This document shows positions 2,915 to 50,148 of a DNA stretch of 64,000 bases, piece by piece. The number at the start of each line of letters is the position of its first letter. Position 1 is the first letter of the stretch. The stretch is from Oscillospiraceae bacterium (GTDB taxonomy: Bacteria > Bacillota > Clostridia > Oscillospirales > Ruminococcaceae): assembly GCA_022800935.1 (NCBI GenBank), contig JAAWRH010000020.1, forward strand, positions 507 through 64,506. Direction: 5' to 3'. The translations under genes and the position numbers were made by a program. The notes beneath the pieces were generated by a model. That model worked only from the letters and a program-made list of their open reading frames with translations, did no database searches and was not told the origin of the DNA.

Positions 2915-4699
2915 TCAGATGACTCCGGCCTCTTTCAGGTCCTGTACATCCATGCCGCTGTTTTGGATATTGAAGATTTCCCGGTAATATCCGTCCCGCT
3001 TGAGCAGTTCGGAGTGGACCCCCATCTCGACAATCTGTCCCTTTTCCAGGATGATAATCTTGTCCGCGCCCTTCACCGAGGAGATGCGCTGGCCGACAAT
3101 AATCTTGGTGCAGGGGAAGTCCAGATTGTCCAGCTGGCCCTGTATGTATTTTTCGGTTTCCATATCCACCGCCGAGGTGGTGTCGTCCAGAATCAGAATA
3201 GAGGGACGGACCGCCAGGGCGCGGGCCAGGGCGATTCTCTGCTTCTGTCCGCCGGACAGACCGACACCCCGCTCCCCGATGATGGTATCGTATCCCTCGG
3301 TCATGTGCTGGATAAACTCGTCCGCGTCGGCCATCACCGCGTACTTATGTACGTCCTCGTTGCTCATCTCCGGATCGCCGTAGCAGACATTGCCCTCCGC
3401 CGTATCCGAGAAGAGGAACACATCCTGGGTAGCCATGCCGATGCCCTTTCGCAGGGTTTTCAGGTCCCAGTCCCGCACATCCACGCCGTCCACCTTGACC
3501 GAGCCGCTGGTGGGGTCATAAAAGCGGAGAATCATATTCATGATAGTGGTCTTTCCGCTGCCTGGCGTACCCATAAAGGCCGCTGTCTCCCCCGCCTTGA
3601 TTTCAAAGGAAACATCGTCCAGCACCACATTTTTTCCGAATTTGAAGGTGACATGATCGAAGACGATGTCGCCCTTCACCTTCTCCGGCTTGTAGGCGGT
3701 ATCCTTGGTGTGAATGGTAGGGGTTTGATAATAAACCTCAATCACCTTGTTGGCGGAGGCAAAAAAGCGCTGGGTGTCGTTTAAAAGCATCCCCATCTGG
3801 CGAATAGGCTGGGCAACAGCCCAGGTCAGGCTGGAAAGGGCCATCAGCTCGCCGGCTGTCAGCCGCCCATAGATGATAAACAAGCCGCCCACCAGCACCT
3901 CAACCACCGTCAGCATATTGGCCGCCATCTCCATGACGGGAAAAAATTTCATCCAATAAAGGTTTACAGAGATGTTGGTGTCCTTATATGCCTTGTTCCT
4001 CTCGCCGAATTTTTCGATTTCGTAGTCTTCACGGGCAAAGGCCTTGATCACCCGGTTGCCGGAAATATTCTCCTGGGCGGCGGTGTTCAGCTCGGTCAGC
4101 CGTTCCCGCAGTCCCCGGTACATGGGCTTTATCTTTTTGGAGTAAAAGGCGGACACCACATAAATAACCGGTGTAACCGCCAGAATGCACAGGGTAAAAA
4201 TCCAGTCGGTGGCAAAAAAGAAAATCAGCGCCGCCACAAACAGGACCAGTGAGTTCAACAGCTGGCGGGAAATCCCCGCAATGGAATGGCGGACCATGTC
4301 CAGGTCACCGGTCATACGGGTCATCAAATCGCCGGTCCGGTTGCGGTCGAAAAACTCCATTTCATTATATTGGAGGTTTTCATACAGCTTCAGACGGATG
4401 TTCTTTACCGTCTGCTGGGACACCTTCTCGAAAATCATGACCATAATATAGCCCATAAAAGAACGTAAGATGGTCACAATACAGGTTGACGCCGCAAGCG
4501 GAATCAGAAGCTCTGTCCGCCGCACAACCTCGCCTGTAACAGGGTCGGAAACGCCTACCACTACATAGTCAATGATGCCTTGGATCAGTTTGGGGTTGAT
4601 CAGCGCCATTGCTGGATAAATAATCTGGAGGATGACACCGATAACAAATTTCTTCTTCTGATCCCCCATGTTGTGCCAGACCCATTGGAACTGGAACAT
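2915..4699 (-). CDS. ABC exporter, fused permease/ATPase, subunit 1 of a pair
   Basis: Walker A GTPGSGKTT, signature LSGGQKQR, Walker B ILILDDTTSAVD. RBS GAGGAGGGA lies upstream of the ATG at 4699. Adjacent and co-directional with 1062..2837, so likely a heterodimeric exporter. Confidence 0.9.
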   Translation of the reverse strand: MFQFQWVWHNMGDQKKKFVIGVILQIIYPAMALINPKLIQGIIDYVVVGVSDPVTGEVVRRTELLIPLAASTCIVTILRSFMGYIMVMIFEKVSQQTVKNIRLKLYENLQYNEMEFFDRNRTGDLMTRMTGDLDMVRHSIAGISRQLLNSLVLFVAALIFFFATDWIFTLCILAVTPVIYVVSAFYSKKIKPMYRGLRERLTELNTAAQENISGNRVIKAFAREDYEIEKFGERNKAYKDTNISVNLYWMKFFPVMEMAANMLTVVEVLVGGLFIIYGRLTAGELMALSSLTWAVAQPIRQMGMLLNDTQRFFASANKVIEVYYQTPTIHTKDTAYKPEKVKGDIVFDHVTFKFGKNVVLDDVSFEIKAGETAAFMGTPGSGKTTIMNMILRFYDPTSGSVKVDGVDVRDWDLKTLRKGIGMATQDVFLFSDTAEGNVCYGDPEMSNEDVHKYAVMADADEFIQHMTEGYDTIIGERGVGLSGGQKQRIALARALAVRPSILILDDTTSAVDMETEKYIQGQLDNLDFPCTKIIVGQRISSVKGADKIIILEKGQIVEMGVHSELLKRDGYYREIFNIQNSGMDVQDLKEAGVI

Positions 4700-5028
4700 T
4701 CAGATTCCCTCCTCTCTTTCACCTTCAACGCCGCACAGTTTCTCTTTCTTTTTTTGCACGGACAACGCCTCCTGACTTGGGCAGGACGCCCTTTGTTCTG
4801 TTTCGGCTGCACGGACAATGGCATCTCTGTCCGGAACAGCTCCACACACACGGTATCATATACGAAAGCGGCGGCAAAATCAACCTGTTACACCCTATTA
4901 ACAACATTTTTATAAACTATTCATACGAGATTGAAACTTTTTTCATTGATACGCCAGTTTGTATCCGTCAACAAATTTTTTTCCTTTTCCATGTAAGAAT
5001 TCACATACTTTTTATGGGAAAACCCCTG

Positions 5029-5055
5029 TTGCAAAGTTTGAAAATCGTGTATAAT
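5029..5055 (+). promoter_or_regulatory. Candidate sigma70-type promoter for the MBOAT/DHHW genes
   Basis: TTGCAA (5029-5034), 15-nt spacer, TATAAT (5050-5055). The spacer is short, so this is only tentative. Confidence 0.3.
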
Positions 5056-5244
5056 GGAAGATACACGCGGTCCGCCGGAATTTGCCAGGACTTTACCGGT
5101 AAAGTACCGGGACCGCCCGGTCAAAAAAATTTGAAAAGCCGCAAAATACGCCGGTTTTTTTACCATAAAAACGATAGGATAGAATCCTGAGCCCCTGCCG
5201 CCACGCCGGTCTGTTCTGGGCAATCGAAGATAGGAGCCACGCCG

Positions 5245-6651
5245 ATGATATTTGCCAGCCTGTTTTTTCTGTATTTTTTTCTTCCTCTCAACCTGCTGCT
5301 GTACTATGTTGTTTTCCGCCGGCCCCAGTACCGAAACCTGGTGCTGATTCTCTTTTCCCTTTTTTTCTATGCCTGGGGGGAACCGGTGTGGATTATCCTG
5401 TTGATTTTCTCCTCCTGTATCGACTATCTCCACGGCAGGTTTATCCAGCGGCATAGGGGAACGCCCCTGGCAAGGCTTGGCGTCGCCTCCTCCCTGGTTC
5501 TCAACCTGGGGATACTGTTTCTGTTTAAATACAGCGGCTTTTTTGTCAGCTCCCTCAACGCCGTACTCCATCTATCCCTGCCGGTTCCCGGCTTCCGGCT
5601 GCCGGTGGGCATCTCCTTCTACACCTTCCAGACCATCTCCTATGTGGTGGACGTTTACCGGGGGGATGTGGAGGCAGAAGACTCCTATCTGGGCTATCTG
5701 ATGTATCTCTCCCTCTACTTCCAGTTGGTGGCGGGGCCCATCGTCCGCTATAAGACGGTGGCCAGCGAGATTTCCAGCCGCCGCGTCACCATGGAGGACT
5801 TCAGCGACGGCCTCACCCGCCTGGCCATTGGCCTGGCCAAAAAGGTGATGCTGGCCAACACCGCCGGGCAGATCGCCTCCCGATACCTGGACGGGGACCT
5901 GTCCGCCCTTTCGGTGGCGGGGGCCTGGTTCGGGGCGCTGCTCTACACCCTGCAAATCTACTTTGACTTTTCCGGCTACTCCGACATGGCCATCGGCCTT
6001 GGGCGGATGTTCGGCTTCCACTTTGACGAAAATTTCAACTATCCCTATCTCTCCAAAAGCGTCACCGAGTTCTGGCGGAGGTGGCACATTTCTCTGGGCA
6101 GCTTTTTCCGGGACTACCTCTATATTCCCTTGGGGGGGAACCGCAGGCACTGGTTTGGGAACCTGTTCATTGTGTGGTTCTGTACCGGGCTGTGGCACGG
6201 GGCAAGCTGGAATTTCGTGTTCTGGGGATTGTTTTATGGGCTGCTGATTATTCTGGAAAAGGCGTTTCTGGGCCGGATACTGGAAAAGCTCCCCGCCCTT
6301 TTCTCCCATCTCTATTTGATTGCGGTGGTTATCTTCGGCTGGGTGCTGTTCTATTTTACCGACATCTCCCGGCTGCTTGCATATCTTCGGACCATGGTTG
6401 GTCTCACCGGGGCCCCGCTGTGGGATCTGGGCCTTCAGGTAAACTTCAGCAACAACATCTTCTGGCTGATTGCCGCGGTAGCAGGATGCTTTCCGATTCT
6501 TCCGGCCCTCTCCCGGTGGATGTCCAAACGGCGGGGCCTTGATACCCTGCGGTATTTTGGGAGGCTTGTATTTACACCGGCGATGCTGCTGGTTTCCACG
6601 GCGATGCTGGTAGGGCAGAGCTATAATCCGTTCCTGTACTACCGGTTCTGA
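5245..6651 (+). CDS. MBOAT family O-acyltransferase (AlgI/DltB-like)
   Basis: Multi-TM 468-aa protein with the hallmark region FWRRWHISLGSFFRDYLYIPLGGNR...GLWHGASWNF. AGGAG RBS lies before the ATG. Confidence 0.9.
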   Translation: MIFASLFFLYFFLPLNLLLYYVVFRRPQYRNLVLILFSLFFYAWGEPVWIILLIFSSCIDYLHGRFIQRHRGTPLARLGVASSLVLNLGILFLFKYSGFFVSSLNAVLHLSLPVPGFRLPVGISFYTFQTISYVVDVYRGDVEAEDSYLGYLMYLSLYFQLVAGPIVRYKTVASEISSRRVTMEDFSDGLTRLAIGLAKKVMLANTAGQIASRYLDGDLSALSVAGAWFGALLYTLQIYFDFSGYSDMAIGLGRMFGFHFDENFNYPYLSKSVTEFWRRWHISLGSFFRDYLYIPLGGNRRHWFGNLFIVWFCTGLWHGASWNFVFWGLFYGLLIILEKAFLGRILEKLPALFSHLYLIAVVIFGWVLFYFTDISRLLAYLRTMVGLTGAPLWDLGLQVNFSNNIFWLIAAVAGCFPILPALSRWMSKRRGLDTLRYFGRLVFTPAMLLVSTAMLVGQSYNPFLYYRF

Positions 6652-19384: not shown

Positions 19385-19496
19385 TACCGGCCTGGGGCGG
19401 ACATCACAGGGAAGTCGGGTGAGAATCCCGCGCGGTCCCGCCACCGTGATGCGCGTTTTCCAGCGCGCTAAGTCGGGTCGCTGCGTCTGTCCGGTA
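19385..19496 (+). promoter_or_regulatory. Cobalamin (B12) riboswitch aptamer
   Basis: Core GGGAAGTCGGGTGAGAATCCCGCGCGGTCCCGCCACCGTGA matches the conserved AGGGAA..GGTG..AA.CC...C.G.CCCGC.ACTGT core. B12-box-like AAGTCGGGTCGC. Closing helix TACCGG/CCGGTA. Sits upstream of a BtuF-like gene. Confidence 0.75.
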
Positions 19497-43466: not shown

Positions 43467-44147
43467 TCACCGCTTTTTCTTAACATTCCTAAGGTGCTCC
43501 CGCTTCACCTTTTCGGAAACCTTGGTTCGAGGCGTCAGCTTTCCGTTGATCTCCCTGATCTCCCCCCTGGTGAGGGAATATTTCGTCCTCCGCCCCGCCT
43601 TTTTCAAAGCCCAGTTCAGTTCATTCAGATGAATCACCCACACGTCATGGCCGTTGACCGCCGAATGCCCCCCGCAGTCCACATCCTTAAACTCCGCCTT
43701 GTCCGAAAAGACAATCACGGAATGGAACATCCCCCGGTCCTTTACCCCCAAGAACTTCATCAGGGAGGCGATATGCCCCTCGTTCTGCCGGATGGGGTTG
43801 TAGAAACTGTTTCTGGTACCGTTGGGCCGGGTCTGCATCCAATACTGGCTTTCAGCAGAGGCGAATATCCACCCGGAGTAAGCCTTATTCTCAAATACAT
43901 AGATGCCGGAGTGGTGCAGCATAATGACGTCCGCCTCGGTGGTGGAGCGGGAGGTGGGGATATACACATTCTGCAACACCTTCCGGTATCCCCCCTGCCG
44001 GAGCAGCCGTCCCGCCAGCTCCTCCTCCCCCTTTCGCCCCGCCTCGTTGATCTTCCGCTGACGGTCCCTGCGCCGGAGGCTTCTCCGAACCACAGCCGCC
44101 AGAATCAACCCCGCAGCGACGGCCAACGCCAGTATGACCAACACCAT
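43467..44147 (-). CDS. NERD domain nuclease-like protein with N-terminal TM anchor
   Basis: GRKGEEELAGRL...VLQNVYIP...TEADVIMLHHSGIYVFENKAYSGWIF...NPIRQNEGHI matches the NERD layout. Start set at MVLVILAL to avoid overlap with the GNAT gene. Confidence 0.7.
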   Translation of the reverse strand: MVLVILALAVAAGLILAAVVRRSLRRRDRQRKINEAGRKGEEELAGRLLRQGGYRKVLQNVYIPTSRSTTEADVIMLHHSGIYVFENKAYSGWIFASAESQYWMQTRPNGTRNSFYNPIRQNEGHIASLMKFLGVKDRGMFHSVIVFSDKAEFKDVDCGGHSAVNGHDVWVIHLNELNWALKKAGRRTKYSLTRGEIREINGKLTPRTKVSEKVKREHLRNVKKKR

Positions 44148-44182
44148 CACAGGACGGGACACGCCCGCCGCCTCCAGGCCCT

Positions 44183-44674
44183 TCAAAGCACCTTCTCCAT
44201 GTGGATATGGGGGCAGAATTCGTCCAGATAGATATCTCCGCTGGCGGTATAGCCGCATTTTTCATAGAAGCCCCTGGCCTGACACTGGGCGGAGAGCCCG
44301 ATTCTCTTTGCGCCGAAGATTTTTGCCTTCTGCTCCAACAGGGCCAAAATCTCCTGTCCCAAATGGAGCTTTCGATACTGGGGGTAGACGGCCACCCGTC
44401 CAATGGTATACATTTCCGGGGAATCCGACGGAAACACCCTCCCGGTCCCGGCGGGACTTCCGTCCAGATAGAGGACCACATGATAGGCGTCCGGGTCAAT
44501 GCTGTCGAATTCAGCATCCCCGTCAAAGCCCTGTTCATCTACAAACACCGCCTTGCGGATGTCATGGGCGTCCACAGGCAGGCCCTTCTGAAATAGATGT
44601 GTATGCTGCAAAATAACGCTTCCCTTCCATAGTTCGTATAGGATAACTATACCCGGAAAGGCGAATTCTGTCAA
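44183..44674 (-). CDS. GNAT family N-acetyltransferase (YjcF-like)
   Basis: IRKAVFVDEQGF...HVVLYLDGSPAGTGRV...IGRVAVYPQYRKLHLGQEIL...GFYEKCGY. Confidence 0.8.
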   Translation of the reverse strand: MTEFAFPGIVILYELWKGSVILQHTHLFQKGLPVDAHDIRKAVFVDEQGFDGDAEFDSIDPDAYHVVLYLDGSPAGTGRVFPSDSPEMYTIGRVAVYPQYRKLHLGQEILALLEQKAKIFGAKRIGLSAQCQARGFYEKCGYTASGDIYLDEFCPHIHMEKVL

Positions 44675-44853
44675 GATGGGGGATTTTCAGTGAAATCCGC
44701 CTCAGCACCCACAGGTTTTCCGGTATCCCATTCCTCCGAAACATAATCGCCGCTGTATCCAGCGAACCGTTCAGCCAGGGAAGGATACTTACGTCTTTTT
44801 TGTTCCGACTCCGAAACCTCTTTCTTAGCAATTATCACTTCTCTATCTTTCAT
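44671..44853 (-). CDS. Short ORF resembling only the C-terminal tail of MazE/AbrB-type antitoxins
   Basis: MKDREVIIAKKEVS...LAERFAGYSGDYVSEEWDTGKPVGAEA matches the ...EIDWG.PVGKE.W tail pattern. No SpoVT/AbrB beta-domain. ATGA overlaps at both ends. Confidence 0.4.
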   Translation of the reverse strand: MKDREVIIAKKEVSESEQKRRKYPSLAERFAGYSGDYVSEEWDTGKPVGAEADFTENPPS

Positions 44854-45503
44854 GCCATCCACCAAGTCCCATCCGCCGCCTGATAGAAATTCCCCACCTC
44901 TTCCGACAGCCTGTTTCCCTCATAATCCCTGATGATTATCTTGTAATAATTCCGATACTGTTCTGTGGCACACTCCTTTTCCTCATCCCAGCCTTCCTCC
45001 AGCCACGCTTCAAAATAGATTCTGCCATCCTCCATAAAAACAACATGCTCATTGCTCTCCATCGGGATGGAGATTTTTTCCGGGTAGTAGCATTCAAAGC
45101 GCTCCTCCTGGCTGATAACGTGTACCGGCTCCCCTATAATGCGCAGGTTATATAAATTGACCTCCTCTGTACTCAGCTCCGTTACCTTCTCCATCAGCTT
45201 TTCCGGAATATAGCGATACAAGGTAATCCTCTTTTCATCATAGTCCCCTTGCAGGAAATAGTAAAAGCCTCCCGCATAAACAGGATCGCTGTATACAACA
45301 TTTCGCTTCTTCGCAAACGGCTTGTATACATTGCCGGATGCAAAGTCAAAAAACAGGATGATCGAGCCTTGGTATCCCCCCGATTTTGACCATTCAATCA
45401 GGTCGTAGAAATCGTTTGTGTCCGAATGGGCAAAGGCCAGCCGCTCCTGACCAAGTATCTTTTCTATATACCTTCCCTCGACTTCTCTGAAACGTCTTAT
45501 CAT
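44850..45503 (-). CDS. Hypothetical protein (AT-richer than neighbours)
   Basis: 217 aa, Tyr/Glu-rich. No family recognised. Confidence 0.6.
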   Translation of the reverse strand: MIRRFREVEGRYIEKILGQERLAFAHSDTNDFYDLIEWSKSGGYQGSIILFFDFASGNVYKPFAKKRNVVYSDPVYAGGFYYFLQGDYDEKRITLYRYIPEKLMEKVTELSTEEVNLYNLRIIGEPVHVISQEERFECYYPEKISIPMESNEHVVFMEDGRIYFEAWLEEGWDEEKECATEQYRNYYKIIIRDYEGNRLSEEVGNFYQAADGTWWMA

Positions 45504-45529: not shown

Positions 45530-46735
45530 CTACTCCCCATCCCCCGCCTTAAAATTATAGATGGGCCTTATGATGCTCACGATCTCCGCCGTCGGCCCAA
45601 TATTCTCCACAATATCCGTCATATCCTTATACGCCATGGGACATTCATCCAGCGTATCCCGATTGACCGACGTGGTGTATATCCCCTTCATCTGCTTTTT
45701 GAACTCATTAACCGTAAAAGAACGCTTGGCCTCGCTGCGGCTCATCAGCCGCCCCGCCCCGTGGGGCGCGGAATAATTCCACTCCTCATTCCCCTTCCCC
45801 ACACAAATCAAACTCCCGTCCCGCATGTTAATGGGTATCAACAGCTTCTCCCCTGCCTTGGCGGAAACCGCCCCCTTACGCAGGATCATCGCCTGGGTGT
45901 CAATGTAATTGTGGATGGTGGTGAACCGCTCCGCCGCCCCCAGCTTCATCCCCTTGAGCATTTCGTCCATCATGGCCCTCCGGTTGAGGGCAGCGTACTC
46001 CTGGACAATCTTCATGTCGTGGATGTAATCCTCAAACAGCTTTCCCGAAAGGTAAGCCAGCGTAAAGGGCACATCGGTGAGAACCTGGTTTTTCAGCTTC
46101 TTGATTTCCTTCTGTATCTCCTTCTGCCGCCCCTCGGCCTTCATCTGGTCGATCAGCTCCTGTACCGCGGCCTTATCTGCATGGTTGAGCTGGCGGTATC
46201 CCTCCTCCTGATAGAGCTTCGCCACCTCCACCCCCAGATGTCTGCTGCCTGAGTGGACCACAAGGTAAAGGTTTCCCTCCTCGTCCCTGTCCGCCTCAAT
46301 GAAGTGGTTGCCGCCCCCCAGCGTCCCGACAGAACGCAGGGCCCTCCCGATATTTACCTCCTCCGCACATCTCAGCTGGGAAAGGTCGATCTGGTCGGCG
46401 TACCTGTGGGACTGCTCCCGGATGGAAAAGCCGGAGGGAATCTTCTCATAGATGAGCTTATCCAGCTTCTGGGGCTCCAGATGGTCCTGATAGACCCGCA
46501 CTGTCTCCATCCCACACCCGATATCCACCCCCACCAGGTTGGGGACGACGGTGTCCTTTATGGTCATAGTGGTCCCGATGGTACAGCCCATCCCGGCGTG
46601 GACGTCGGGCATAATCCTGATTCTGCTGTCCTTTGCGAATTCCTGGTCGCAGAGCAGCTGAATCTGCCTCCGGGCGGATTCCTCCAGCCGGGTGGCGTAC
46701 ACCTGAGCGGTGTTGTACTTTCCAATGATTTCCAT
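45530..46735 (-). CDS. rtcB: RNA-splicing ligase RtcB
   Basis: MEIIGKYNTAQVYA...MPDVHAGMGCTIG...GGGNHFIE...HSGSRHLG...APHGAGR. The ORF-track extension to 47041 overlaps the upstream gene and is rejected. Confidence 0.92.
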   Translation of the reverse strand: MEIIGKYNTAQVYATRLEESARRQIQLLCDQEFAKDSRIRIMPDVHAGMGCTIGTTMTIKDTVVPNLVGVDIGCGMETVRVYQDHLEPQKLDKLIYEKIPSGFSIREQSHRYADQIDLSQLRCAEEVNIGRALRSVGTLGGGNHFIEADRDEEGNLYLVVHSGSRHLGVEVAKLYQEEGYRQLNHADKAAVQELIDQMKAEGRQKEIQKEIKKLKNQVLTDVPFTLAYLSGKLFEDYIHDMKIVQEYAALNRRAMMDEMLKGMKLGAAERFTTIHNYIDTQAMILRKGAVSAKAGEKLLIPINMRDGSLICVGKGNEEWNYSAPHGAGRLMSRSEAKRSFTVNEFKKQMKGIYTTSVNRDTLDECPMAYKDMTDIVENIGPTAEIVSIIRPIYNFKAGDGE

Positions 46736-46767: not shown

Positions 46768-48249
46768 CTACTCTGCCGCCGCGGTGATTTTCTCGTATCT
46801 CTCCGCCCCCAGCACCTCCAGCATAAACCGGTAGGGGGAGGGATTTTCGGAGAGGGCTAGCTGGAACACCCTGGGCGAGCACCCGCTGACCAGTACAACC
46901 CCCTGTTCGTTGGAGGTGACAGGCTGCTGCAAATTCCGAGAGGCCACGTTCCAGAACACCACCCTGGGCAGGCGGTATCCGGCCCTCCGGAACTTCCTTT
47001 TTGCATTCTGGAAGTTGGTCAAATCGCTGTTTTCGGCGCACCGGTCAAACTCCATGTCGGAGATGATGTAGATGACAGAGGGCAGCTCCGACTGCTTCAG
47101 CCGGTTGTGGACCGCCGTCTTCAGCAGCAGCTCGAATACGGCCTCTATATTGGTGTTGGCCACCTCGTTAAAGGACATGCAGTACCGTATCTGCTCATAT
47201 AAATCCCGGCCCTTAATCTGCACCAGCTGGGGCCTGCGGGAAAAGGTCATAAAGTGTCCCCGGAACGCCCCCCGGTTTCTCTGGGCAAAATAAACCGCCA
47301 GGGACATGGCCACCGCCGCGGGCAATGGCCTGTAGCAGGACATATACATGGAGCCGGAGCCGTCAGCTACAACCAGGGCGTTTTCCCCGTTGGTGTAGTC
47401 GGGCAGGGCGTTCCATGTGGCCTCCAGCGCCCGGCGCTCCTCCTTGGTACCGGGTTCGCCTCCCTGATTTACCCAGGGGGCCACAATCTCATAGGGATAC
47501 AGCGTCCCGGTGTTCAGCTTTGCCTTGCCGGACATGACAAGCTCCATGTATCCCTGATACCGTTCCTTGTCGTTGCGCAGGAATGCCTTCCGGTATTTCA
47601 GCATGGCCTTGGAGGGCTGGAGGTTGTAATCGAAAGAATAGTCCCTTTCCCGCAGATTATTTTCCAGAATGGCGATGCCCCGGCGCAGGCGGGAAAGGGT
47701 TTGGCGGTACTCCTTACAGCTCATTCCCAGGGCTTTTGCCAGCTTTCTGCCTATGCGGTTGGTCTCCTCACTGGAGGCGTTGACGGAGGGGAGCCATTTC
47801 CCCAGCAGGGAGATATTGGTTTCCCCGGCGTCCAGTGCAGCGATGTCCCTTTTCAGCTGTTCCCCGATGAATGCGGCGGCAGCGTCTTGGCAGGGGGTGT
47901 CCATCAGCACCAACAGGTCGTCATAGCGGCCCATTTCCACGATATAAGGGAGGTTTTTCACCACGGTTTTGGGATTGCTCACTGCCAGGCCGGCGAGGAT
48001 CACCCGGAACACCCGTCTTTCCCCCAAGCCGCCGCGGACGTCGCGGGCGTAGAATGCGGTTTTCAGGGCAATATCGCGGCTTTCGGCCCAGGCGCGGAGA
48101 AATCTGACGGTGATCTCCTGGTCATCCGCCTGGCGCAGCGCGCCGATGGTGGAAAACAAATCGAGGCAGTTGCTCATGGTAGAAGCATAGGTTTCCGCTC
48201 CGTTTTCGGTCAAGGTTTTGTTGGCTTGTAATTTCAGATAGTTCAGCAT
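46768..48249 (-). CDS. DUF2828-type protein (TROVE/Ro-like N-terminus with C-terminal vWA domain)
   Basis: 493 aa from MLNYLKLQ (RBS GGAGG). LGKWLPS and TLYPYEIV motifs that I associate with DUF2828. MIDAS-like VVADGSGSM in a vWA-like C-terminal half. The family name is from memory and should be confirmed. Confidence 0.7.
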   Translation of the reverse strand: MLNYLKLQANKTLTENGAETYASTMSNCLDLFSTIGALRQADDQEITVRFLRAWAESRDIALKTAFYARDVRGGLGERRVFRVILAGLAVSNPKTVVKNLPYIVEMGRYDDLLVLMDTPCQDAAAAFIGEQLKRDIAALDAGETNISLLGKWLPSVNASSEETNRIGRKLAKALGMSCKEYRQTLSRLRRGIAILENNLRERDYSFDYNLQPSKAMLKYRKAFLRNDKERYQGYMELVMSGKAKLNTGTLYPYEIVAPWVNQGGEPGTKEERRALEATWNALPDYTNGENALVVADGSGSMYMSCYRPLPAAVAMSLAVYFAQRNRGAFRGHFMTFSRRPQLVQIKGRDLYEQIRYCMSFNEVANTNIEAVFELLLKTAVHNRLKQSELPSVIYIISDMEFDRCAENSDLTNFQNAKRKFRRAGYRLPRVVFWNVASRNLQQPVTSNEQGVVLVSGCSPRVFQLALSENPSPYRFMLEVLGAERYEKITAAAE

Positions 48250-48800
48250 AAGAACCGCCTCCTTCAAAAGACAAATCAAAAAGGAATGTAGCTCTCCCCC
48301 GTCCCCCGCGCGGCGCCATTTTTTACAGGGTGGTTTTACCCCTCCCCTGTCCCTAAAAGAGATGCGGTTGACGCCGCTGTATCGGGGTCAAGCTTTTGAA
48401 AGTGTCGCGGCGCCGTTTTGTTATATCGTGACAGGATATTAAAAATCTGCGGTTGACGCCGCCGCTTTCCATGGAATATACAGGCTTGCGGAACCAAGGT
48501 ACAAATCCCCGAAGGAATCCACCGGAATTGAACCGGCTCTCCCCCATCGCTGAGGGATTTACCAATCAGATTGCTGTATGTACCTTTCCCCCGCAAAGGG
48601 AAAACCGTCAAGGCGCATGCCGTCTTAGCGGTAGACGGCGTTTCTTTACTGAGCTTTTGGCTGCTGTGCGCGCCTTTGGAAGAAACACGGTGCGTTAGCA
48701 GAGAATCCTCTTTCGAGACTTCCCGGTTGGAGTCGAACCAACTTTGTCCAGCAAATGGTCTGCGGTGTACACCGTTCATTCCTTTGTTTCCCCTGTGACT
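48250..48800 (-). ncRNA. ORF-free structured leader or ncRNA region with two tRNA T-arm-like hairpins (candidate Y-RNA-like RNAs)
   Basis: Extended -10 TGtTATGAT (complement of 48803-48811). T-arm-like GTTGG-TTCGACT-CCAAC (complement of 48726-48742) and GCCGG-TTCAATT-CCGGT (complement of 48521-48537). A 7-bp/7-nt-loop hairpin at 48619-48639. GAAA and UUCG tetraloop hairpins. Two modules closed by GCGGCG/CGCCGC helices (48310-48377 and 48407-48462). Confidence 0.45.
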
Positions 48801-48894
48801 ATATCATAACAGACCGCCGCGGAAAAATCATATAAAAAAAGTTGCGGACATGAAAAATTTACCGCTTTACCTCACCCCTCCCCCCTCACACCAG

Positions 48895-50148
48895 TCACCT
48901 GTCGTCCAGCCCTTGAAAGAATCCTGACGACATAAGCCCAATGACGCAGACAAAAATCCCGCTGGGCAGCAGCACCCAATAGGGCGCGGCGGAAAACCGA
49001 TCGAACAACACCCCGTAGACCATCTGCCCCACAGGCTGGGCGCACATGGAAAGGGTAAAGACATAGGACATTATCTTCCCCATCAGCCCCTCAGGTGTCC
49101 GCCCCTGGATGGCGGAGATAGCGCATGTGGAAAAGAAGCTGCACCCCGCCTGGCAGAGGAAAAGCATCGCCACCAGAACAACATACCGCCCAAAGGCGCT
49201 TACCGGAAGCAGAAAGGCAACGCCGCAGGGAATCAGGCAGGCCCCAAAGGATGCCAACACCCCGGCCAGGTACTTCATCCGCAGCTTTTTCGCTGAAGCC
49301 AACGCCCCTACCAGCACGCTGCCCCCAATCGCCGCCGCCCCCATAAAGCTTTCCGCCGCGCCGTAATACTCCGCGGAAAGCCCCAAAACCGTCCGCACCA
49401 GGTAGGGAAACCCCACCACCACCGTTCCCGCCACAAATAGGCTCACCAGGGCGGCCAGCAGGAGCAGCTTTAGAATCCCCGGCTGTTCCCGGCACAGAAA
49501 ACGCATACTGACGGTAAAATCCTCTCTCACCATAGACAGGATACCGGCAGAACGCTCCGGCCTGTGGTATTCCAGCCGGATAAAGCACTCAAAAAACGCG
49601 GTAATGAAAAAGCAAACCACCGCCCCATACAGGACAGGCCCCAGCCCCAGGGCCGTATAGAGCACGCTGCCCAAAAACGGGGTAACCAGTCCCGCGATGG
49701 CAGAGACCTGGCTGACGGCTGCGTTACCCTTGACAATGTTGTCCCCGGAGAGCATCTGCGGGACACAGGCCTGCACCGTCGGGGATTCAAAGGCCCCTAG
49801 CACCGATAGGACAATCAGCAGCGCGCCAATCACAAAAATGTCGTGACCGACAGGCAGCGCAAGCCCCGCAGCCAGCACAGCAGTGCCGGAAAGAGCGTCC
49901 AGCCCCACCATAATATTACGCCGATTGGCCCGGTCCGCCAGCAGCCCCCCAAAGGGGGAAAGGAAGATGGTGGGCAGCATAGCCGCCGCCAGCAGCCCCG
50001 CAAAGACAGAGGCAGAGCCGGTTTTCTCCAGCACATACATGGAGAGGGCGAATTTCAGGGTATAGTTGCCCAGCAGCGAGCTAATCTGTCCTAAAATCAA
50101 AAATGTAAAGTTGCGGGTAAATAGTTTTTTCTTCATATTTTCCTCCAT
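48895..50148 (-). CDS. MFS transporter
   Basis: 417 aa, 12 TM-like segments, GGLLADRANRRN loop motif. Adjacent to a TetR gene. Confidence 0.85.
   Translation of the reverse strand: MEENMKKKLFTRNFTFLILGQISSLLGNYTLKFALSMYVLEKTGSASVFAGLLAAAMLPTIFLSPFGGLLADRANRRNIMVGLDALSGTAVLAAGLALPVGHDIFVIGALLIVLSVLGAFESPTVQACVPQMLSGDNIVKGNAAVSQVSAIAGLVTPFLGSVLYTALGLGPVLYGAVVCFFITAFFECFIRLEYHRPERSAGILSMVREDFTVSMRFLCREQPGILKLLLLAALVSLFVAGTVVVGFPYLVRTVLGLSAEYYGAAESFMGAAAIGGSVLVGALASAKKLRMKYLAGVLASFGACLIPCGVAFLLPVSAFGRYVVLVAMLFLCQAGCSFFSTCAISAIQGRTPEGLMGKIMSYVFTLSMCAQPVGQMVYGVLFDRFSAAPYWVLLPSGIFVCVIGLMSSGFFQGLDDR

Follow-up and report, generated by a model that had tools for sequence, protein, structure and literature searches.

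A tandem array of five handle-bearing, Y-RNA-like modules upstream of a DUF2828-rtcB operon: probable partner RNAs of a Ro60 paralogue

The stretch of DNA analyzed here (the window, 64,000 nucleotides from contig JAAWRH010000020.1 of an Oscillospiraceae bacterium) carries on its minus strand an operon for a 493-aa protein with DUF2828 and DUF7788 (vWA) domains (46768–48249; Pfam DUF2828 2.6e-37, DUF7788 2.3e-42, and a weak VWA_2 match) and for the RtcB RNA ligase (401 aa, 45530–46735; Pfam RtcB 3.8e-64, phrog_1075 'tRNA splicing ligase'). We studied the 562 nt ahead of this operon (48250–48811, minus strand), which run from an extended -10 promoter element to the start codon of the DUF2828/vWA gene, with rtcB next; an MFS transporter gene (48895–50148) forms the other flank of the region. 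A model that had seen only the letters and their open reading frames (ORFs), and whose account we call the sequence-only reading, had described the region as ORF-free and densely paired and had proposed that it encodes Y-RNA-like or tRNA-mimic noncoding RNAs (ncRNAs) linked to the DUF2828/vWA protein, perhaps a divergent and undescribed variant. The extended -10 TGtTATGAT that it had read from the sequence is present on the minus strand (48811–48803), and a transcription start is predicted near 48796. At the gene end lies a short 5' untranslated region (48250–48308) in which a Shine-Dalgarno sequence, GAAGGAGG, can be read at 48265–48258. A terminator scan found no minus-strand terminator between 48309 and 48250, which leaves the array described below unseparated from the gene.

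When the region was read alongside homologous loci, it resolved into 5 tandem stem-closed modules, M1 to M5, all of which share one handle. The handle consists of a closing helix of 7 to 9 bp, the motif NN-AC(A/C)GCA directly after the 5' side of this helix, and an almost invariant G after its 3' strand, the motif being placed in an asymmetric internal loop. M1 (48686–48776) is closed by ACGGUGU/GCACCGU (48775–48769 with 48693–48687) and has the handle motif ACCGCA at 48766–48761. In its minimum free energy (MFE) fold, the interior of this module (its cargo) comprises a T arm (48742–48726) and a GAAA-capped hairpin (48724–48701) in the position of the YrlA acceptor stem, and a D arm is absent. 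M2 (48609–48677; closing helix AAGGCGCG/(U)GCGCCUU, handle ACAGCA at 48667–48662) holds a hairpin with a 7-bp stem and a 7-nt loop at 48639–48619 and has orthologues in L013, L004, L002, and L174 of the homologous loci introduced below. M3 (48495–48587; closing helix AAGGUACA/UGUACCUU, handle ACAGCAA at 48577–48571) contains UUGGUAAA, which is like the GG of a D-loop, then a hairpin (48557–48541), a T arm (48537–48521), and a UUCG hairpin (48519–48504), and overall it resembles a minimal tRNA elbow. M4 (48406–48463; closing helix GCGGCGUC/GGCGCCGC, handle ACCGCA at 48453–48448) carries a tentative anticodon-arm mimic, AUAUC-CUGUCAC-GAUAU (48439–48423, 'anticodon' GUC), whose loop CUGUCA(A/C) is kept in L002 and L004. 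M5 (48309–48378; closing helix GCGGCGUCA/UGGCGCCGC, handle ACCGCA at 48368–48363) is the module nearest the gene and contains a conserved GGGAC-hairpin-GUAAAA core with its hairpin at 48350–48325. [quoted passage not shown]

The individual hairpins listed in the sequence-only reading are all there: GTTGG-TTCGACT-CCAAC and GCCGG-TTCAATT-CCGGT are the T arms of M1 and M3, the 7-bp/7-nt hairpin inside AAGGCGC/GCGCCTT is the M2 cargo, and the GAAA and UUCG tetraloop hairpins appear in the fold. It had also recognized a duplicated module, GCGGCGTC...GGCGCCGC, at 48462–48407 and 48377–48310. These 2 modules, M4 and M5, are indeed alike, but the handle is common to all 5. What that account missed was this single handle on all units, the family-wide modular array, and its linkage to DUF2828.

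Folded alone, each module forms its closing helix in the MFE structure, that of M4 included, with z-scores between -1.4 and -3.5 (M2, -2.9; M3, -2.8; M5, -3.5, with 0 of 200 shuffles as good). The fold of the whole 562 nt barely beats shuffled sequences (z = -1.8; 5 of 100 shuffles fold equally well), so thermodynamics alone is weak and the case for structure rests on comparison. By chance, 0.27 occurrences of the handle pattern RRGRYRYNNACMGCA and 0.04 of the variant CGGYGYNNACCGCA would be expected in the 64 kb; the counts are 2 and 3, respectively, and all 5 occurrences are on one strand, inside 48363–48774. Under default filters, a covariance model of the handle alone (R1), built on 93 spliced handles from other loci with no window sequences, detected M2 at 27.4 bits (E ~1e-4 when the whole 64-kb window is searched) and M4 at 13 bits, and missed M1, M3, and M5; with the filters off all matches with long interiors were lost, the maximum hit length being too short. 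Because the variable interior measures 25 to 110 nt, a single covariance model is unsuited to these RNAs, and we therefore used a motif-plus-helix scan with strand and shuffle controls, in which the motif has to be followed by a helix of 7 bp or more, with the 3' strand placed 20 to 170 nt downstream.

Homologous loci were obtained by exact-protein look-ups (L002 to L012, 61% to 84% protein identity; L173, 92%; L174, 75%), from a genome-contig scan (one relative, L001, 66%), from a metagenome scan (80 loci, 54% to 100%), and from a viral-contig scan (80 loci, 40% to 59%). Arrays of 1 to 7 modules lie beside the DUF2828 gene in approximately 170 homologous bacterial and phage loci. The flanking genes vary from locus to locus (MFS, EndoIII, WYL, peptidase, chromate transporter), and the gene-free, module-bearing stretch upstream of DUF2828 persists. 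On the gene strand the scan returned 1.2 modules per 250 nt in the bin nearest the gene and 0.86 and 0.45 in the next two 250-nt bins, against a background of approximately 0.1. Across 161 non-redundant loci, ACAGCA reaches 3.85 per kb on the gene strand in the 750 nt upstream of DUF2828, whereas the opposite strand has 0.12 per kb and other positions have 0.32 to 0.49 per kb, and 54% of those motifs were accompanied by a closing helix of at least 8 bp versus 7.5% on the control strand. The consensus of 228 distinct modules reads A-AAGRYRC-NN-ACAGCAA ... NN-GYRYCUU-G-U, in which the 3' G is 96% conserved and stands opposite a conserved A.

The sequence of the closing helix is free to vary while its pairing is kept. 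In an alignment of 134 handles all 9 pairs are changed on both sides, and the covariation score is 0.76, compared with 0.23 for shuffles, none of 500 of which scored as high, and with 0.11 to 0.21 for slid partners. The paired fraction of cells in the same alignment, 89%, is partly circular because handles were preselected for at least 7 consecutive pairs; given this preselection, the enrichment of motif and helix (the ACAGCA density and the 54% versus 7.5%) serves as the independent test. RNAalifold showed compensatory changes in the interiors as well: in the T stem (GC to AU) and the GAAA hairpin of M1 (6 orthologues), at 10 pairs of M3 (9 orthologues), and at 8 pairs in the inner hairpin of M5 (8 orthologues). 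The alignment of related loci that the sequence-only reading had suggested as a check thus returned conserved arrays with compensatory changes in the handle helix and in hairpins of M1, M3, and M5. The number and order of modules vary freely between loci, modules being inserted or deleted among relatives, and one module almost always lies 75 to 140 nt ahead of the start codon.

The same comparison bears on the idea that the region codes for protein. A 147-aa ORF does exist at 48336–48779 on the minus strand, and to this extent the region is not ORF-free as it had been called. However, this ORF has no Pfam match, its frame is broken in L004 (84% identity), the ORF is missing from more distant relatives, no similarity is found beyond near-identical contigs, and modules are inserted or deleted between relatives. 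We looked in this way for the conserved translated small ORF that the sequence-only reading had named as a competing explanation, and we rejected the protein-coding reading, which is almost certainly wrong.

The region was also compared with known RNA families. ARAGORN called 0 tRNA genes in the window and no cloverleaf closed by an acceptor stem was found; as neither ARAGORN nor Rfam calls a tRNA in the region, the earlier statement that it contains no complete cloverleaf was right. In Rfam 15 no family reached its gathering score in the region, only chance-level matches appeared at E up to 10, and riboswitch, T-box, and ribosomal leader families gave no match there. The best match was tRNA-Sec-like (20 bits, E = 0.27) and covered the second T arm, that of M3. 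A true tRNA or tRNA-Sec gene was rejected since ARAGORN found none and the 20 bits compare with a gathering score of 47, and the assignment of the whole region to a known Rfam family failed both at gathering score and at E up to 10. The YrlA model (RF02553, gathering score 69) did not match in the window even at E up to 10. The sole gathering-score match in the window is an AdoCbl (cobalamin) riboswitch aptamer, RF01482, at 19407–19483 on the plus strand (59.3 bits).

The search with YrlA and tRNA models, another check that had been proposed, gave no match in the region but YrlA matches of 40 to 51 bits on counterparts of M1 in relatives, below the gathering score. The highest scores were those of L029 (50.9 bits, E = 8e-11), L008 (47.6), L054 (40.9), and phage LeBron (39.8), and with E values of 1e-5 to 1e-11 these matches are significant yet sub-threshold. 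The counterparts of the first module in L001, L006, L008, L029, and L054 have all 3 elements of the tRNA-like domain (T arm, acceptor-like hairpin, and D arm), permuted as is typical of YrlA. The window M1 has lost its D arm, which explains why the window has no YrlA match. In the L029 alignment the outer helix and the 5' AUGC loop of YrlA align to the closing helix and AUACAGCA, which suggests that the handle is a diverged counterpart of the Rsr-binding module. Some modules of relatives have D, anticodon, and T arms in normal tRNA order and score 41 to 50 bits with the Rfam tRNA model, some of them above threshold; in these the acceptor stem is cut to approximately 3 bp and replaced by the handle. 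The anticodon-loop pattern Y-U-NNN-R-N was found in 50 of 85 predicted 7-nt loops other than T loops in module interiors and in 0 shuffled interiors. These loops are mostly CU-NNN-AA, and their commonest triplets are CAU, UUU, GUU, and UGA.

Modules that pass the Rfam tRNA threshold, together with the location of the gene within phage tRNA arrays, could be taken to mean that the modules are remnants of decayed tRNA genes, or repeats derived from tRNA, that ride without function on a mobile DUF2828 cassette. However, the most conserved part of the modules is the non-tRNA handle, which persists all the way from Clostridia to coliphages and shows compensatory changes in its helix and a strict strand bias, and approximately two-thirds of the modules have no recognizable tRNA feature. 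We regard such a decayed origin as very unlikely.

The DUF2828 product, which we take for a Ro60-like paralogue on the basis of a structural model, is the presumed protein partner of the modules. It matches PHROG phrog_850 'RNA-binding protein' (1.8e-133), and it is labelled 'Ro-like RNA binding protein' in mycobacteriophage records. The AlphaFold model (35 homologues, mean pLDDT 80) has a ring of helical repeats and a C-terminal vWA fold, and its 7 best Foldseek matches in the PDB are all Ro60/TROVE structures, including 9kop, 9l5y, 1yvr, 2nvo, and 9nep (E 1e-7 to 5e-5). The TM score over the full length (approximately 520 aligned columns) is approximately 0.5 for most of them and 0.35 for 2nvo (Deinococcus Rsr). 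This top group comprises the Ro60 of Thermus phage phiLo, Xenopus Ro, Deinococcus Rsr, and Ro60-RNA complexes, and isolated vWA domains rank next. The protein has no match to Pfam TROVE, phmmer against PDB sequences found nothing, and neither PADLOC nor NCBIfam assigns DUF2828. The modeled structure supports calling the protein 'Ro-like' at the level of the fold; by sequence it belongs to a distinct paralogous family. Among protein clusters formed at 90% identity, at least approximately 8,000 match it.

The sequence-only reading had placed the RNAs upstream of Ro-like and RtcB genes. The array does lie upstream of both, but across the family its linkage is to DUF2828 and not to RtcB. The rtcB gene follows DUF2828 in 10 of 11 and in 50 of 67 bacterial loci, just 4 of the 75 viral loci have it closer than 2.5 kb, and L009 and L012 have arrays and DUF2828 with no rtcB; as phage loci mostly lack a nearby rtcB, the array is linked to DUF2828 rather than to RtcB. 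These counts bear on the proposal that the RNAs are DUF2828-independent substrates or sentinels for RtcB and tRNA-targeting nucleases, that is, decoy tRNA fragments that would be cleaved and re-ligated while the closing helix holds the halves together. Mimics of anticodon loops and T arms are frequent, RtcB is adjacent in most bacterial loci, and the Salmonella rsr-yrlBA-rtcBA operon is controlled by tRNA fragments (PMC7790460), all of which would fit it. Yet the arrays follow DUF2828, most of the viral loci carry modules although so few have rtcB close by, the same holds for the 2 loci with no rtcB, and the invariant sequence of the handle points to a dedicated binding partner. We hold this proposal to be unlikely. 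Downstream of rtcB, L006 to L008 encode RlaP (PF10127), DUF503, and a Tpt1-type 2'-phosphotransferase (PF01885), a fuller RNA-repair cassette than that of the window. In the window, rtcB is directly followed by a 217-aa ORF (44850–45503, minus strand), which is kept in L173 (3032–3685) and has no match in Pfam, NCBIfam, PHROGs, or PADLOC, and a NERD-domain ORF lies at 43467–44258. After its 217-aa ORF, L173 has a small ORF, a GNAT acetyltransferase, and a NERD-domain protein.

By tblastn the DUF2828 protein was found in 711 phage records, among them Felixounaviruses (Felix O1-type) of E. coli and Salmonella, cluster L mycobacteriophages, Listeria phages of the A511 and P100 types, Vibrio phage KVP40, and phages of Staphylococcus, Enterococcus, Campylobacter, and Bacillus. 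In phages the gene lies in or beside arrays of tRNA genes. Modules are present in Listeria phage A511 (L178; 3 modules at 2692–2957 upstream of gp178, with RtcB 1.3 kb downstream), Mycobacterium phage LeBron (L175; 3 modules at 3952–4199 downstream of gp53, ending at a terminator), E. coli phage adrianh (L177, a Felixounavirus; 4 modules at 4747–5580, between tRNA genes downstream of the gene), and Bacillus phage FADO (L176; 1083–1145 and 2360–2470), and they are unannotated in the GenBank records of all 4. Likewise unannotated in FADO is an array of at least 13 tRNA genes upstream of its DUF2828 gene. Several other loci have further RNA genes nearby. One metagenomic contig, L077, carries a full-length ROOL RNA (RF03087, 292.7 bits, 487–1061), followed by approximately 13 tRNA genes, 4 modules, and DUF2828. 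In the viral contig L096, the modules are closely preceded by a tRNA (2028–2103) to which ARAGORN assigns the anticodon CTA and the label tRNA-Pyl, possibly an amber suppressor, and in another viral contig, L121, it reports a tmRNA gene upstream of DUF2828 (1192–1587).

The placement of the modules bears on the choice between RNA genes and a cis-acting 5' leader, in which DUF2828 or another factor would bind the handles on its own mRNA and autoregulate the translation or stability of DUF2828-rtcB, with no separate small RNAs. In the window and in most bacterial loci the array lies directly between promoter and start codon with no terminator, and one module is nearly always found 75 to 140 nt ahead of the start codon, both of which favor a leader. 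However, the LeBron modules come after the gene and run up to a terminator, those of adrianh lie among tRNA genes downstream of the gene, the L009 array has an internal terminator and a second promoter inside, and such free variation of module number and order is unusual for a fixed regulatory fold. The modules of LeBron and adrianh, downstream of the gene or among tRNA genes, fit trans-acting RNA genes better than a 5' leader, and the variable placement in general speaks against a purely cis-acting one. A leader that acts alone therefore appears rather unlikely, and such a role can coexist with the model that we favor.

We consider it probable that the region is a tandem array of 5 Y-RNA-like ncRNA modules, that it forms the 5' portion of a DUF2828-rtcB transcript started at the extended -10 promoter, and that these modules are partner RNAs of the Ro60 paralogue. 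The modular RNA structure is conserved, it is strictly linked to and co-oriented with DUF2828, the DUF2828 product has a Ro60-like fold, and some modules show remote similarity to YrlA and tRNA; from these observations we infer the protein binding, the processing, and the biological role of the modules. The inference of Y-RNA-like or tRNA-mimic ncRNAs made in the sequence-only reading is upheld by the Ro60 fold, by the conservation of the array at approximately 170 loci, by the YrlA matches in relatives, and by the lack of an Rfam family for the region, and the RNAs may indeed be tethered to the DUF2828 protein.

In this model each module would combine a conserved handle, the putative protein site, with a variable apical cargo as its functional end. 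The DUF2828 protein would bind the handle in the way that Ro60 contacts Y RNAs at their stem and CGAA loop, and the modules would either be freed from the precursor or be active within it. In the window the cargoes mimic parts of tRNA (in M1 a T arm with an acceptor-like hairpin, in M3 a T arm with a GG-containing loop, in M4 an anticodon-like loop) and might bring the protein to tRNA-recognizing factors or to damaged tRNA. They could act as tethers, or as decoys or sentinels, in a pathway that in bacteria would end in ligation by RtcB.

Several points weigh against this model. Between the array and the coding sequence there is no terminator or mapped processing site, so that the RNA could act only as a leader. 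No module of the window reaches any Rfam threshold, and M1 is without a D arm. The motif CGAA (GNCGAAN0-1G), which according to the literature is contacted by Ro60 (PMC4201824, PMC12135203), is absent from the loop site of all 5 window modules, where the loop motif is NN-AC(A/C)GCA. The AU-rich anticodon-like inner hairpin of M4 is outside the MFE fold, the paired fraction in the handle alignment shares the circularity described above, and the binding of the handle by DUF2828 is a presumption.

The promoter of the array has a second conserved element. A box, GTCCGCAACTTTTTTTATATGAT, lies at 48827–48849 on the minus strand, approximately 16 nt ahead of the -10, and its family consensus is GTTCGCAACTTTTTTTCCRTGAT. 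On the gene strand of more than 50 bacterial DUF2828 loci (in the set L014 to L093 and in the window), its core GCAACTTTTTT precedes the first module by approximately 45 to 50 nt; in the 64 kb of the window it occurs a single time. Relatives have a TGnTAnnnT element at the same distance from the box, and some loci have an inverted half-site, AAAGTTGCG, upstream of it. From this arrangement GTTCGCAACTTTTTTTCCRTGAT is probably a regulator-binding site, either an operator or an activator site. In 39 to 45 of the fetched loci, nearly all of them bacterial, the array is adjoined by genes for a WYL-domain protein (401 to 411 aa) and a 303- to 338-aa partner that has no family match (for example L006 1137–2342, L008 182–2424, L010 459–2602, and approximately 40 further loci). 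By analogy with PafBC, the WYL protein and its partner could be a candidate regulator pair that binds the box; none of these genes is within the 64-kb window, though the window has the promoter box.

A wider reading joins these elements. DUF2828 and the handle RNAs may form a modular ribonucleoprotein platform, in bacteria and in large tRNA-rich phages, that shows interchangeable tRNA parts (anticodon arms of particular identities, elbows, whole tRNA bodies) as decoys or sentinels for tRNA-targeting nucleases. It would absorb or report their attack and pass nicked RNA to RtcB, and in bacteria the operon would be switched on by the WYL-type pair at the GTTCGCAACTTTTTTT box. We put this forward as a speculation that has some chance of being right and is on balance doubtful; if true, the arms race that phages and their hosts wage over tRNA would have an undescribed layer based on RNA.

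Ro60 and its Y RNAs have been studied extensively in animals and a small number of bacteria. The combination of a Ro-type protein, adjacent Y RNAs that mimic tRNA, and RtcB is already known, and Ro60 and Y RNAs were believed to be present in only approximately 5% of bacterial genomes (PMC4201824). What is apparently new is the distinct handle, the multi-module arrays, the breadth of the cargoes, and the association with DUF2828 across gut Clostridia and many cultured phages. The handle corresponds to no Rfam 15 family, and we found no paper or GenBank annotation that describes it. A full-text literature search for DUF2828 returned plant and tardigrade papers only, Ro60 reviews and supplementary lists of phage YrlA RNAs being outside its reach, and a partial earlier description may exist, for example of a YrlA-like RNA beside the Ro-like gene of cluster L mycobacteriophages. 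The unannotated pairing of DUF2828 and RNA recurs in many gut bacteria and well-known phages. It would amount to a large sister system of Ro60/Y RNA, in which a paralogue with the Ro60 fold has a partner-RNA signature of its own, and the common handle offers a simple annotation signature for hundreds of new small RNAs. Since hosts and phages are cultured, the role of tRNA mimics with Ro-like proteins, the reason for their presence in tRNA-rich phages, and their tie to RtcB repair are directly testable.

The closest known systems are those of YrlA, such as Salmonella rsr-yrlBA-rtcBA and the YrlA/YrlB precursor of M. smegmatis. There, as here, small RNAs lie beside and co-oriented with the gene of a ring-plus-vWA protein and in many cases accompany RtcB, a locus encodes multiple RNAs that can derive from one precursor, and a stem formed by the 5' and 3' ends is followed by a conserved internal loop on the 5' side. 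Apical tRNA mimicry with permuted T, acceptor-like, and D elements is also shared, on our side in L008, L029, L054, and LeBron (PMC4201824). In contrast, the protein here is a DUF2828 paralogue with no TROVE Pfam match, the loop is NN-ACAGCAA and not the GNCGAAN0-1G of YrlA, and the YrlA scores stay below the Rfam gathering score, with none in the window. The arrays reach 5 to 7 modules, and the cargoes are far more varied, including anticodon-arm mimics, tRNA bodies in normal order joined through their acceptor end, and plain hairpins. The Ro60 of Thermus phage phiLo with its Yrl1 and Yrl2 RNAs (PMC12135203) is similar in that a phage protein with the Ro60 fold has 2 stem-bulge RNAs just upstream, and its structure belongs to the top group of Foldseek matches described above; however, the Yrl RNAs have a CGAA bulge and no reported tRNA mimicry, and the protein belongs to a different sequence family. 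With tRNA genes the modules share loops of the T, D, and anticodon types, scores above the Rfam tRNA threshold in some relatives, and, in phages, a position within tRNA arrays, but they have no usable acceptor stem or CCA end, and the helix of the handle takes the position of the acceptor or the anticodon.

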